A stretch of 64,000 bases of DNA from Acidobacteriota bacterium (lineage in GTDB: Bacteria; Acidobacteriota; Vicinamibacteria; Vicinamibacterales; JAKQTR01): NCBI GenBank assembly GCA_026393755.1, contig JAPKZO010000040.1:39311-103310 (forward strand). Reading direction: 5' to 3'. The notes beneath the pieces are model-generated. The model ran no database searches. It had not been told where the DNA came from and saw only the letters and a program-made list of their open reading frames with translations. Position 1 is the first letter of the stretch. Each line of letters opens with the position of its first letter. Below are positions 19,566 through 22,481 of this stretch, one piece after another. A program made the translations under genes and the position numbers.

Positions 19566-19593
19566 TTGACCTGAATCAGGTTGGGCGTATACT
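19566..19593 (+). promoter_or_regulatory. sigma-70-type promoter candidate
   Basis: TTGACC-N16-TATACT lies 35 nt upstream of ATG 19628, with GGGGGT just before the start. Confidence 0.45.
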
Positions 19594-19627
19594 TGCACCA
19601 GACCCCTGATGGTTCCTGGGGGTAGAA

Positions 19628-19873
19628 ATGCCAGATGTGGATAAGGAATTAGCCGCCTACTCCAGGCTACAGCCCGGCCTCGAGGCCGATCACATGGGTA
19701 AGTGGGTACTGATTCATGACGAGACGCTGATCGGCTTATTCGATTCGTTCGAGGCGGCGGCTGATGACGGGGTCGGACGCTTTGGGCGAGGCCCGTACTT
19801 GATCCGCCAGGTAGGGGCGCCGCCGATTACGCTTCCGGCGTCCGTTGTATTCTTTCCTCTCGTGCATGCCTGA
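19628..19873 (+). CDS. small DUF5678-like protein
   Basis: 81 aa. The HMGKWVLIHDETLIGLFDSFEAA core resembles DUF5678-type small proteins (from memory). Hydrophobic C-terminal tail ITLPASVVFFPLVHA. The 3' end overlaps the next gene by 8 nt. Confidence 0.75.
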   Translation: MPDVDKELAAYSRLQPGLEADHMGKWVLIHDETLIGLFDSFEAAADDGVGRFGRGPYLIRQVGAPPITLPASVVFFPLVHA

Positions 19874-20327
19874 CGTTCAATGCGGTTTCCCAGACGTTGA
19901 GGGCGGCGCTTCCGGTACAGACCTGCTTGTCGCCTACGGACCCACCATAGCGGTTGATATTGGGTTTGATTCGAACTATCGACCGCAGCAAGGCGGAGTG
20001 CCAGTTGCCGGAATCAGCGGGATTCTGGCACTTGTGGACACCGGGGCCACCGAGAGTTGTATCGACAGTCTCTTGGCGGCGCAGCTGAACCTGCCGATCG
20101 TCGATAGGCGAGTCACGTCTGGCGCGCACGGCAGCCGCGAGGTCAATGTTCACCTTGCGCAAATCCACGTTCCAGCGATCCCGTTCACGATCTGGGGCCA
20201 ATTCGCCGCCGTCGATTTGGCGGCTGGTGGCCAACCGCACAAGACGCTTCTCGGGCGGACATTCCTCCGATCGTTCGTGATGCTCTACGTTGGTACCAGT
20301 GGAACCGTGACCATCCGTCGCCCCTAG
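19866..20327 (+). CDS. retropepsin-like (clan AA) aspartic protease
   Basis: Start set at ATG 19866 (MPDVQCG). Catalytic ALVDTGATESCI (D-T-G-A) and the downstream LLGRTFL motif are typical of retropepsin-like proteases. 153 aa implies a homodimeric single-lobe enzyme. Confidence 0.8.
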   Translation: MPDVQCGFPDVEGGASGTDLLVAYGPTIAVDIGFDSNYRPQQGGVPVAGISGILALVDTGATESCIDSLLAAQLNLPIVDRRVTSGAHGSREVNVHLAQIHVPAIPFTIWGQFAAVDLAAGGQPHKTLLGRTFLRSFVMLYVGTSGTVTIRRP

Positions 20328-20345
20328 TCGACGGGGCTGTTTTTC
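20320..20345 (+). terminator. intrinsic terminator candidate
   Basis: GCCCC-tagtcgac-GGGGC followed by TGTTTTTC. The stem includes the last codons and stop of the protease gene. Confidence 0.45.
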
Positions 20346-20376
20346 AAACTGACCCACTATCTGCTCGCGGATGTTC

Positions 20377-20406
20377 TTGTCGACGGGCGCGTGCGTTCGG
20401 TATAAT
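20377..20406 (+). promoter_or_regulatory. sigma-70-type promoter candidate for tRNA-Lys
   Basis: TTGTCG-N18-TATAAT (perfect -10). The -10 ends 66 nt upstream of the tRNA 5' end. Confidence 0.4.
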
Positions 20407-20472: not shown

Positions 20473-20548
20473 GGGCCGCTAGCTCAATTGGTAGAGCAGC
20501 AGACTCTTAATCTGCGGGTTCACGGTTCGATTCCGTGGCGGCTCACCA
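20473..20548 (+). tRNA. tRNA-Lys (anticodon CUU), CCA encoded
   Basis: The cloverleaf folds by hand. Acceptor GGGCCGC/GCGGCTC, D-stem GCTC/GAGC, anticodon stem GCAGA/TCTGC with loop CT-CTT-AA, T-arm CACGG-TTCGATT-CCGTG, discriminator A, CCA at 20546-20548. Confidence 0.95.
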
Positions 20549-20554
20549 GCCTTC

Positions 20555-20724
20555 GCTCTCCCTCCATCACACGGTCGAGCTTCGGCTGGCTACGCCAGCG
20601 GTGACACGCGAAGGCTGCGCGCCGAAGCAGCGGGAGGAGAGGTTCGGACCGCACCGTTGCGAAGGCGGGCCGCTTGCTCTCCCTCCATCACACGGTCGAG
20701 CTTCGGCTGGCTACGCCAGCGGTG
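20555..20724. repeat. 49-bp perfect direct repeat (2 copies, 121-bp period)
   Basis: GCTCTCCCTCCATCACACGGTCGAGCTTCGGCTGGCTACGCCAGCGGTG occurs at 20555-20603 and 20676-20724. Each copy contains the hairpin GCTGGC-TAC-GCCAGC. Copy 1 starts 7 nt after the tRNA. Copy 2 ends 11 nt before the stop of the DUF2442 gene. Confidence 0.95.
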
Positions 20725-20734
20725 GGGCGCTCGG

Positions 20735-20992
20735 TCAGGCGGCCGACTCTGGCACACCTTCCTCAACAACCTGCCATCGTGCTTCAATCGTGTCGGCCGA
20801 CAGATCGGGACCACAATCCCATTCAACGAAGTACCCGCCGTTGAAAACCTTGACGAATTCGCCAGGGTCACGAAGGCCTTCGAATGCCTCATCTCCCAGA
20901 TAGGGACGCACATCAAAGATGCCCACGCGACCGTCGTCCGCAATGACGGACAACGTCCAACCAGACTGTGGACGAAGTTCTTTGATTCTCAT
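20735..20992 (-). CDS. DUF2442 domain protein
   Basis: 85 aa. Sequence (LSVIADDGRVGIFDVRPYL, FVEWDCGPDLSADTI) matches my memory of DUF2442. ATGA overlap with the upstream DUF4160 gene. Confidence 0.8.
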   Translation of the reverse strand: MRIKELRPQSGWTLSVIADDGRVGIFDVRPYLGDEAFEGLRDPGEFVKVFNGGYFVEWDCGPDLSADTIEARWQVVEEGVPESAA

Positions 20993-21261
20993 TGATCGAG
21001 CCCCTTGATTGGAAATGGTGTCTTGCCGTTCGCCGCCAAGTTCCAGTCGGCCAGCAGATCCTCTCGGTGAATCTCAATCCAAGCGACAATCAACTTGTGC
21101 TTGTGGGGTGGCAGTTCGCCGGCCAGAGTCGTTCCATCGAGAATCGAGTACACCGCGATGTCGCCTTGGTAATCAGCGTGTATATGGGGCACGTGATGTT
21201 TCTCACTGTCGCGAAAGAACATTCGAATGAGAATCCCGTAGAACATGGAAATCGTCGGCAT
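20989..21261 (-). CDS. DUF4160 domain protein
   Basis: 90 aa. N-terminus MPTISMFYGILIRMFFRDSEKHHVPHIHADYQG is the characteristic DUF4160 signature. AAGAGG RBS upstream. Confidence 0.85.
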   Translation of the reverse strand: MPTISMFYGILIRMFFRDSEKHHVPHIHADYQGDIAVYSILDGTTLAGELPPHKHKLIVAWIEIHREDLLADWNLAANGKTPFPIKGLDQ

Positions 21262-21517: not shown

Positions 21518-21931
21518 TTAATCGTCGAACAACTCCGGCCGCGCGGACCGCAGGGCTGCCCGGACGGAACGGCCCGCAGTCACCGCTGCCCGGCACTCGT
21601 CCTCGAGGTACGAGGGGCCCCCGGGATACCGCGCGATCGTGCCGCCATCGGTCAGTTGCTGACGAAGGCGTGGCGTCAGGATATTCGCCAGGGCCTCGCG
21701 GATGTCGCTCTCCTGGGTCTCCAGGAGACGATCGAAGTTGTGCGTGTACACGAACGCCTGGTTCGCCGACGTCAAGACCGCTTTCAGAAGGCGCTCGGTC
21801 GCACCAGCGGACAACGCGACGGCCTCGTTCCACATCCGGCGCTCGAACGCCGTCTCCGCCAGCTCCAGCTGCCGGTCGGCAGCTGCCACCCACTCCCTCG
21901 CGAGCGTGCGAGCGCGATCGTCAGGCGGCAT
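21518..21931 (-). CDS. HEPN domain protein (putative toxin partner of the MNT gene)
   Basis: 137 aa. LLKAVL, THNFDRLLE and IARYPGG segments fit HEPN (PF05168-type) from memory. Its 5' end overlaps the upstream nucleotidyltransferase gene by 11 nt. Confidence 0.75.
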   Translation of the reverse strand: MPPDDRARTLAREWVAAADRQLELAETAFERRMWNEAVALSAGATERLLKAVLTSANQAFVYTHNFDRLLETQESDIREALANILTPRLRQQLTDGGTIARYPGGPSYLEDECRAAVTAGRSVRAALRSARPELFDD

Positions 21932-22481
21932 ACAACTCGATGCCTTCGCGGCTGGCGGGATGCTCGATCGCCCCCACGCAGTCGCGGCGCCACTCGTACT
22001 CGGAGTGCGTCGTGATCAGAAGGTCGTAGTCGATCGGCACCGATCCGATCGCGACACGCATGTCAATGACCGCGGCTCGGGTGGCGGGTTGCCCGTCGGG
22101 CAGCACGACGAGGATGTCGAGGTCACTGTCCGGACCAGCATCGCCGCGCGCATGTGACCCGAAGAGGACAATCCGTTCCGGATCCCACCGGCGCAGTTCC
22201 GTCACGATACGCTTCAGCGTGGCCGCATCAGCACCGGCCAAGCCCGCCTTGCGCCGGACCTCCTCGTAGGGCACGCGGCCGCGGTCGCGGCGCCCCTTCC
22301 GGGCAGCCTGCGCGTCATCCTGATCTTCGAGGGCTTCCAGACGAGCGAGGTCGGCAACCGAGACGAGCGCCGCGACGGCCTTGCCGTGGCGTTCGAGCAC
22401 GATCCGCTCGCCGCCATAGGCAACGCGGTTGAGGGTGTCACCGAACGTGTCGCGCACGGCCGTGGCAGCCAATCTAGCCAT
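21921..22481 (-). CDS. Phd/YefM-like antitoxin domain fused to a minimal nucleotidyltransferase (MNT) domain
   Basis: The N-terminal ~55 aa (AVRDTFGDTLNRVAYGGERIVLERHGKAVAALVSVADLARLEALED) look like Phd/YefM. A basic linker follows. The C-terminal part carries LFGSHARGDAGPDSDLDILVV, the GS-x9-12-D-x-D nucleotidyltransferase signature. Confidence 0.8.
   Translation of the reverse strand: MARLAATAVRDTFGDTLNRVAYGGERIVLERHGKAVAALVSVADLARLEALEDQDDAQAARKGRRDRGRVPYEEVRRKAGLAGADAATLKRIVTELRRWDPERIVLFGSHARGDAGPDSDLDILVVLPDGQPATRAAVIDMRVAIGSVPIDYDLLITTHSEYEWRRDCVGAIEHPASREGIELYAA

Follow-up and report, generated by a model that had tools for sequence, protein, structure and literature searches.

The window analysed here is a 64,000-nt stretch of contig JAPKZO010000040.1 from an Acidobacteriota bacterium, and all positions given for it count over its whole length. 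It carries on the plus strand a pair of overlapping genes, about 700 bp in all: a small gene for an 81-aa protein with a DUF5678-like fold, followed directly by a gene for a 153-aa, single-lobe retropepsin-like aspartic protease (Table 1). The pair had been pointed out in a first-pass annotation of the window, and the two open reading frames (ORFs), with their 8-nt overlap, were recovered as described there. A longer protease starting at TTG 19845 was also offered by the ORF listing; ATG 19866 was taken as the real start because the homologues start at MPxxxCGF. Both proteins of the window begin with MPDV, which had been read as a shared feature. This is true of the window copy and not of the families, whose consensus starts are MADxD and MPxxxCGF, so far as the alignments tell, and the common start is a coincidence.

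A promoter and a terminator of its own had likewise been ascribed to the unit, and candidates for both were located. The sigma-70-type site ahead of the small gene is one of three promoter-like sites in the region, where 0.4 were expected from shuffled sequences; these are consensus matches with a putative function. No operator-like palindrome was found near the promoter-like site at 19566-19593. The terminator-like hairpin at the other end has a 7-bp stem with 5 G-C pairs, followed by GCTGTTTTTC. The overlap of the two genes suggests that translation of the small gene and of the protease is coupled. The pair is a self-contained two-gene operon which was acquired horizontally.

Table 1. Features of the two-gene unit in the window, with three loci elsewhere that carry a fused small domain (positions of the latter refer to the respective locus).
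Feature	Position	Strand	Basis or remark
Promoter-like site, sigma-70-type, TTGACC-N16-TATACT	19566..19593	+	10/12 consensus matches; 35 nt 5' of the small-gene ATG
Shine-Dalgarno-like G-run, GGGGGT	19618..19623	+	5-10 nt ahead of the small-gene ATG; read from sequence
Small partner gene, 81 aa	ATG 19628..TGA 19873	+	ORF; divergent DUF5678 fold (predicted)
Conserved C-terminal linear motif, small-protein residues 63-77, G-A-P-P-x-T-L-P-A-S-V-x-[YF]-x-P	19814..19858	+	Conservation; candidate protease-contact peptide (contact inferred)
Candidate contact peptide of the small protein's tail, GAPPITLPASVVFF			
Gene overlap of 8 nt, ATGCCTGA	19866..19873	+	Protease start codon within the end of the small gene
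Protease gene, 153 aa	ATG 19866..TAG 20327	+	ORF; single-lobe retropepsin-like aspartic protease
Catalytic motif D58-T59-G60-A61	20037..20048	+	Conservation in 124 unique pairs
Predicted flap hairpin, strands 78-86 and 89-102, glycine-rich tip S-G-x-H-G	20097..20171	+	AlphaFold2 secondary structure; flap by analogy with retropepsins
LLGRTFL, protease residues 128-134	20247..20267	+	Sequence
G130-R131-T132-F133-L134	20253..20267	+	Counterpart of the retropepsin G-R-N/D motif
Terminator-like hairpin (20314-20335) and T-run (to 20345)	20314..20345	+	Overlaps the protease stop codon; closes the two-gene unit
tRNA-Lys(CTT) gene	20473..20548		Downstream of the pair; own promoter-like site 20377-20406
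OMP-decarboxylase-like fusion, locus L161	4001-5424		
OMP-decarboxylase-like fusion, locus L174	2530-4305		
OMP-decarboxylase-like fusion, locus L175	31-1448		

The linkage of the two genes was followed in two collections. The protease-anchored scan covered one genome per species (185,579 genomes) and gave at least 199 relatives, a number limited by the search pattern; 80 of these loci were fetched, and 78 were testable, having upstream DNA present. The small gene adjoined the protease at all 78, so no protease of the close family was seen without it, and at 77 it lay directly upstream on the same strand; at the remaining one (L040) it was found just downstream of the protease on the opposite strand. 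Junctions at the 77 loci were overlaps of 8 nt (25 loci), 14 nt (23) or 26 nt (11), or gaps of 0-5 nt. In the small-gene-anchored scan of metagenome contigs, the protease was present downstream of the small gene at 74 of 80 loci. The two genes are inherited and transferred together. The first-pass annotation had proposed one two-component module, an idea to be given up if the families were not linked elsewhere, and the linkage in both collections upholds it. The distance matrices of the two proteins were correlated with r = 0.48. A distant pair (L178, 214-1294) consists of a tandem-duplicated small protein, about 32% identical, and after 5 nt a 151-aa retropepsin-like protein with DSGA, a Cys and LLGRDFL (hmmsearch E 1.4e-8); this pair keeps the arrangement, so the partnership is older than the close family.

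These loci also bear on the proposal that the pair is a relic of a retroelement gag-pro region, or that the genes are neighbours by chance. Chance adjacency is excluded by the conservation at 78 of 78 loci. A relic would agree with the match of the protease to families named for gag-linked or retroviral proteases, and a short ORF that precedes the protease and overlaps it in another frame bears a superficial likeness to gag-pro. Against it, neither a reverse transcriptase, nor an integrase, nor a repeat family lay alongside the pair in the 80 genome loci, the protease starts at an ATG or GTG of its own in nearly all loci and has a conserved N-terminus, and the unit has promoter-like and terminator-like sites of bacterial type. 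A programmed frameshift as in gag-pro was rejected because of this start codon and N-terminus, and there is next to no chance that the explanation as a whole is right.

The hosts of the pair were spread over more than 12 phyla, including Acidobacteriota, Verrucomicrobiota, Alpha- and Gammaproteobacteria, Planctomycetes, Bacteroidota, Chloroflexota, Latescibacterota, candidate phyla radiation (CPR) bacteria, Spirochaetia, Thermodesulfobacteriota and Gemmatimonadales. Identity to the window copy was 51-69% across all host groups of the 80 genome loci. The neighbourhoods varied from locus to locus, no flanking gene family recurring in more than 7 of these 80. In the window, GC at the third codon position (GC3) was 0.66-0.68 for the pair and 0.80-0.83 for the neighbouring genes, and judged by this composition the codon GC of the pair is foreign to the window.

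The protease has 153 aa and an isoelectric point (pI) of 5.7, with no signal peptide. Its maximal Kyte-Doolittle hydrophobicity over 19 residues was only 1.37, so a membrane segment is not expected. It passed the gathering cut-offs of two Pfam families, PF13975 (30.5 bits, cut-off 28.2) and PF13650 (26.7 bits, cut-off 24.3). The best NCBIfam matches were TIGR03698 (26.3 bits) and TIGR02281 (16.4 bits), far below the cut-offs of 57.35 and 57.95, and the two families, to which the first-pass annotation had looked for confirmation, did not take the protein in. By these profile scores the protease is a clan AA enzyme outside the curated subfamilies TIGR03698 (clan_AA_DTGF) and TIGR02281 (clan_AA_DTGA). 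The AlphaFold2 model had a mean predicted local distance difference test score (pLDDT) of 85.7, and Foldseek matched it in the PDB to the proteases of equine infectious anaemia virus (EIAV), feline immunodeficiency virus (FIV) and foamy virus, to the RVP domain of Ddi1 and to Rickettsia APRc, with template modelling (TM) scores of 0.60-0.72 normalised to the target. Ddi1 was also the nearest solved structure by sequence (E 0.03). The earlier description as a single-lobe retropepsin-like aspartic protease with DTGA and LLGRTFL motifs was borne out by these matches and by the motifs themselves, both of which lie in the 153-aa protein (Table 1). About 1,560 homologues of the protease were collected; homologues of both proteins were 58-81% identical among the matches listed.

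Residue conservation was scored over 124 unique (non-identical) pairs of small protein and protease. In the catalytic motif, D was conserved in 100%, T in 94%, G in 100% and A in 98%; in GRTFL, G, R and L were conserved in 100% and F in 99%. The flap-tip glycines G86 and G89 reached 99-100%. The conserved active site and the retropepsin-like predicted fold indicate that the protease is probably active. Other conserved positions were Cys65, four residues past DTGA (100%), His125 (94%), Glu63 (88%) and the N-terminal C6-G7-F8 (90-97%, with Cys6 at 95%). C6 (19881-19883), C65 (20058-20060) and H125 (20238-20240) stand outside the general retropepsin signature; they might form a metal site or a redox site, or might set the specificity of the cleft. 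In a gapless alignment to human immunodeficiency virus type 1 (HIV-1) protease, E63, C65 and H125 would fall at D30, V32 and P81, which are substrate-pocket residues, and in that sequence register Glu63, Cys65 and His125 would line the substrate cleft.

The small protein has 81 aa and a pI of 4.8, and neither a membrane segment nor a signal peptide. Its homologues formed about 1,120 clusters at 90% identity, and a profile search gave 1,403 clusters at 50% identity. The window protein itself matched no Pfam or NCBIfam family at E<=1, and in PHROGs it had a single match, with E 0.01, to a family of unknown function. Among 143 relatives, 56 matched PF18929 (DUF5678), the best with E 1.6e-6, and the close homologues P0398, P0458, P0460, P0484 and P0495 carry a precomputed PF18929 annotation. 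The AlphaFold2 model (pLDDT 75) was composed of a helix (residues 2-21), a beta hairpin (strands 26-30 and 33-38), a second helix (41-52) and a strand (58-61). No counterpart of this fold was found in the PDB (Foldseek best E 1.7, sequence profile best E 0.45). In BFVD the best Foldseek matches were Pandoravirus proteins (S5WA56, S4VV29, A0A2U7UG46 and A0A2U7UD66; TM 0.58-0.67, about 2 A root-mean-square deviation), two of which, at ranks 3 and 4, are annotated as DUF5678; from these matches of predicted structures, the DUF5678-like fold occurs in giant viruses too. The small protein is a divergent DUF5678 member by its relatives and its predicted fold, and not by its own sequence; the DUF5678 likeness suggested in the first pass stood on the former count and failed on the latter.

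From residue 62 on, no structure was predicted for the small protein, and the pLDDT was below 50 at residues 68-76. Nonetheless, no part of the protein was better conserved than this tail, G63-A-P-P-x-T-L-P-A-S-V-x-[Y/F]: G63 and S72 were conserved in 100% of the pairs, P70 in 99%, A71 in 98%, and L69 and V73 in 92%, and position 75 was aromatic (Y or F). The residues past the motif (..PLVHA in the window) vary, and they are encoded where the small gene overlaps the conserved N-terminus of the protease. The first-pass annotation had pointed to a strongly hydrophobic C-terminal end of the small protein; this had to be corrected, for the conserved part is ITLPASV with the aromatic residue 75, and the last residues vary. 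A tail which is near-invariant and yet predicted to be disordered is as expected for a peptide that folds onto a partner, and the same two properties are consistent with a tail that is bound by the protease.

In its anatomy, the pair is almost certainly a mobile, translationally coupled two-gene operon that encodes a dedicated partner of DUF5678 fold and a retropepsin-like protease which is cytosolic and probably active. For its function, the reading to which we would give the most weight, at a probability of roughly 40%, is a mobile protease-inhibitor module resembling toxin-antitoxin (TA) systems, in which the tail would act on the protease as a blocker or as a cleavable substrate. The protease would be active as a homodimer, like other retropepsins, and the tail of the partner would lie as a pseudo-substrate in the substrate cleft or on the flaps. 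The docked tail would either silence the protease or turn the partner into a substrate that the protease prefers and cleaves slowly. The pair would then act like a type II TA or addiction module: when the partner is lost or degraded, the protease would be freed and would cut cellular proteins.

Toxicity of the freed protease would explain why a protease is not retained once its partner is gone, whereas a partner can outlive the protease. A TA style is consistent with the gene order, the overlap, the horizontal spread, the foreign GC3 and the small genes surviving alone. Two adjacent, co-inherited genes in variable contexts, with promoter-like and terminator-like sites, are also expected of a type II TA system. 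Support from context came from the window pair and several loci with an orphan small gene, which were found among DUF4160/DUF2442, HEPN/MNT, ParE-like, PIN and XRE-ImmA genes.

The small gene was intact and the protease absent, despite room downstream, at five loci (L084, L088, L101, L132 and L147). At L089, L095, L107, L139 and L140, and likewise at L166, the protease was reduced to its first 31-80 codons, and frameshifted proteases were present at several other small-gene-anchored loci. Orphan small genes often stood among TA-type pairs, identified by eye as ParE-like, PIN, DUF433/DUF5615 and XRE-ImmA. At L089 (2090-5119) the protease was cut off after about 62-80 residues, and an 892-aa ORF with the nucleotide-binding-loop motif GDNGAGKSG followed. 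A partner without a protease was seen at 10 of 75 small-gene-anchored loci versus a protease without a partner at 0 of 78 (Fisher p = 6e-4), a comparison between two different collections, metagenome contigs and genomes; because some of the orphans are near-identical copies, about 6-7 independent decay events would lie behind it.

The mixed collections and the small number of events both weigh against the TA-like reading, and they are joined by several other points. Mean divergence was 0.42 for the partner and 0.40 for the protease, so the two are equally conserved, while antitoxins usually evolve faster than toxins. No DNA-binding fold or family was recognised for the partner in the Pfam, PDB fold and profile searches, although a DNA-binding antitoxin with operator autoregulation is not universal among TA systems. 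Covariation between the two proteins was weak: by corrected mutual information over the 124 pairs (about 100 effective sequences) the top z was about 4, compared with z 8 for pairs of positions within one protein, a signal too weak to place the tail. A divergent protease on a 65-kb IMG/VR contig (L164, 6235-6711; 48% identity, with CGF, DTGS, Cys and GRTFL) had no DUF5678-like gene upstream and was the only protease found without the partner. About 500 nt upstream of it there is a 79-aa ORF, which by eye looks like an XRE-type helix-turn-helix (HTH) protein. The traces left in mobile-element and defence collections were also few. The pair was not found in the collections of sequenced plasmids and phages, where the sole match was a chance one (E 0.1) to a MerR-like mycobacteriophage gene; in IMG/VR it was rare, with only 5 matches; neither protein matched any family of PADLOC-DB v2 at E<=1; and PHROGs gave nothing beyond the one weak match. 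By Pfam, the 176 small flanking ORFs of 63 loci were mostly housekeeping genes, with few TA, defence or mobile genes among them, and we see in this no enrichment in defence islands.

Fusions of the small domain are a further point on this side. In three diverged clusters of one lineage (P0284, P0355 and P0367), an OMP-decarboxylase-like enzyme carried the domain and its tail at its C-terminus, and such a fusion is unusual for an antitoxin. A DTGA protease follows the fusion gene at all three loci; it is without the N-terminal MPxxxCGF segment, and at L161 without Cys65 as well. In favour of the TA-like reading, tandem double small proteins (P0241, P0242, P0274, P0337, P0383 and P0388) were found, which would fit a dimeric partner. 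Also on its side, two tail-less homologues, P0323 and P0376 (L176, 2501-2731; L177, 2501-2704), stood in phage-like strings of small genes with no adjacent protease, and one of these strings includes a Sipho_Gp157 gene. Taken together, the fusions, the tandem forms and the tail-less variants suggest that the DUF5678 domain with its tail is the element which goes with the protease; they would fit the tail as a blocker and as a substrate alike. Two apparent natural fusions of small protein and protease (P0290 and P0329) look like frameshift artefacts and were set aside.

The fused and tandem forms would suit a non-toxic pair of protease and substrate or adaptor, in which the DUF5678 domain with its tail would be a portable recognition handle of an accessory device for regulated proteolysis. 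The protease would trim the tail or dock on it, and in this way the partner, or any protein fused to it, would be matured, activated or turned over. The fused handles, each with a DTGA protease behind it, and the tandem handles speak for such a device, as do the equal and strong conservation of both proteins, the mostly housekeeping neighbours and the coupled translation, which suggests a fixed stoichiometry. The Y/F-x-P that follows PASV also resembles the chemistry of retropepsin cleavage sites, which is a weak comparison. The sporadic occurrence across more than 12 phyla at 51-69% identity and the foreign GC3 fit an element that is selfish or accessory better than they fit part of a pathway; no third conserved gene, be it a target, a transporter or a modifying enzyme, stood alongside the pair; and the small genes outlast the protease, the reverse not being seen in the close family. 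On balance, a recognition handle of this kind is the main rival; it is less likely than not, and the TA-like module is preferred to it by a narrow margin.

An anti-phage effector had been named in the first pass as another role for the pair. In this form of abortive infection, a phage would remove or titrate the small protein, and the freed protease would kill the cell or cleave phage proteins. Mobility and a patchy distribution are known from defence genes as well, some loci of the pair are situated beside AIPR, TIR, AbiGi, MazF, HicB or Uma2 genes, an XRE-ImmA pair and the large ATPase-like ORF were found at orphan loci, and in the window the pair has HEPN/MNT and DUF4160/DUF2442 pairs and a tRNA gene close by. 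Nothing specific to defence emerged, however: the PADLOC search was without a match, the neighbours were mostly housekeeping genes and most loci lay outside recognisable defence islands. The pair also appears to be rare, with the at least 199 matches of the pattern-limited scan among 185,579 species genomes. Such a role would moreover be a special case of the TA-like reading and not a separate mechanism, and it is improbable.

Compared with known systems, the protease resembles the families PF13975 (gag-asp_proteas) and PF13650 (Asp_protease_2) in its DTGA, its GRTFL and its retropepsin-like predicted fold. Both families are broad, and neither has been assigned a function or a partner; the present subfamily differs from them at large by about 50 additional N-terminal residues that include C6-G7-F8, by the invariant Cys65 and the near-invariant His125, and by the partner gene upstream. 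TIGR03698 and TIGR02281 belong to the same clan, and the protease is a member of neither. To our knowledge, few retropepsin-like proteases of bacteria have been studied (APRc, RimB, RloA, SpoIIGA and PerP), none of them with a dedicated protein partner. Rickettsia APRc and Pseudomonas RimB and RloA are likewise single-lobe clan AA enzymes in bacteria. The fold match to APRc had a TM score of 0.52 normalised to the query and 0.60 normalised to APRc; APRc is membrane-bound, whereas the present protease is predicted to be cytosolic, and mobile. The RloA proteases are secreted and encoded in an rloABC operon, and RimB works with the ATP-grasp enzyme RimK (PMC11957051, PMC11957791). Unlike the present protease, none of these three has a DUF5678 protein as its partner.

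The closest solved structure by sequence, and one of the top fold matches, was the RVP domain of Ddi1. Ddi1/Ddi2 is a cytosolic homodimeric retropepsin whose substrates must carry ubiquitin as a recognition handle (PMC7149228). In Ddi1 the UBL and UBA domains are in the same chain, whereas the candidate recognition element here is a separate DUF5678 protein, and there is no ubiquitin-like system.

With type II TA systems the pair shares a small upstream gene overlapping the effector gene, an autonomous operon, horizontal transfer, variable contexts and an upstream gene that survives as an orphan; the window pair also adjoins other TA pairs. It departs from them in a partner that has no known antitoxin or DNA-binding fold and is as conserved as the effector. 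DUF5678 (PF18929) has no assigned function, and the long conserved C-terminal tail marks the present subfamily. In the literature, DUF5678 is mentioned in a proteomics study of plant pathogens that is unrelated to the pair (PMC12135032). A full-text literature search gave no description of the pair, of a function for DUF5678 or of an aspartic-protease toxin, and a TA survey of 2009 does not mention such proteases (PMC2701414). In public annotations the genes are called 'hypothetical protein', 'predicted aspartyl protease' or 'retroviral-like aspartic protease family protein'.

The pair thus shows a protease of a known clan in a conserved arrangement of two genes that is new, and may represent a new class of toxins. 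A stronger proposition, that it is the first TA or abortive-infection family with an aspartic-protease effector, held by the invariant pseudo-substrate tail of a DUF5678-fold partner in its cleft, is one that we put forward with more doubt than confidence. If the TA or abortive-infection reading were true, retropepsin-type enzymes would be circulating among more than 12 bacterial phyla as a mobile two-gene cassette. If the partner inhibits, it would be a natural protein inhibitor of a retropepsin, along with a new toxin class; if it serves as a handle for substrates, the two proteins would make up a minimal counterpart, in bacteria, of the targeted proteolysis known from Ddi1. Inhibitor and handle alike would give DUF5678 a function, and either outcome would also tell something about the control of clan AA proteases in the time before retroviruses. 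The pair is compact and has spread horizontally across soil and water bacteria. It would be easy to test, because the proteins are small and soluble and one host has been cultured: among the 80 genome loci, L049 (Granulicella sp. S156, NZ_LMUH01000005.1, 489112-501564) comes from a cultured isolate and not from a metagenome-assembled genome.

Minus-strand ORFs over the pair (71, 33 and 17 loci) were rejected as shadows of conserved coding sequence, and the 176-aa ORF at 19827-20357 (minus strand) of the window, covering the protease gene, is an antisense shadow and not a gene. At another locus (L167, 6680-12519), an intact pair adjoins AIPR and TIR-domain genes. Downstream of the pair in the window there are two TA-type pairs on the minus strand. 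One is composed of DUF4160 (90 aa) and DUF2442 (85 aa) proteins (20735-21261) and is probably foreign too, given its GC3 of 0.55-0.66; the other consists of a HEPN protein (137 aa) and a Phd/YefM-nucleotidyltransferase fusion (186 aa) (21518-22481). A perfect 49-nt direct repeat, GCTCTCCCTCCATCACACGGTCGAGCTTCGGCTGGCTACGCCAGCGGTG, was found at 20555-20603 and 20676-20724, with 121 nt from start to start, where shuffled sequences lead one to expect none. Its first copy starts 7 nt past the tRNA-Lys(CTT) gene, and the repeat may represent an attachment site that was duplicated, or else a small repeat element.

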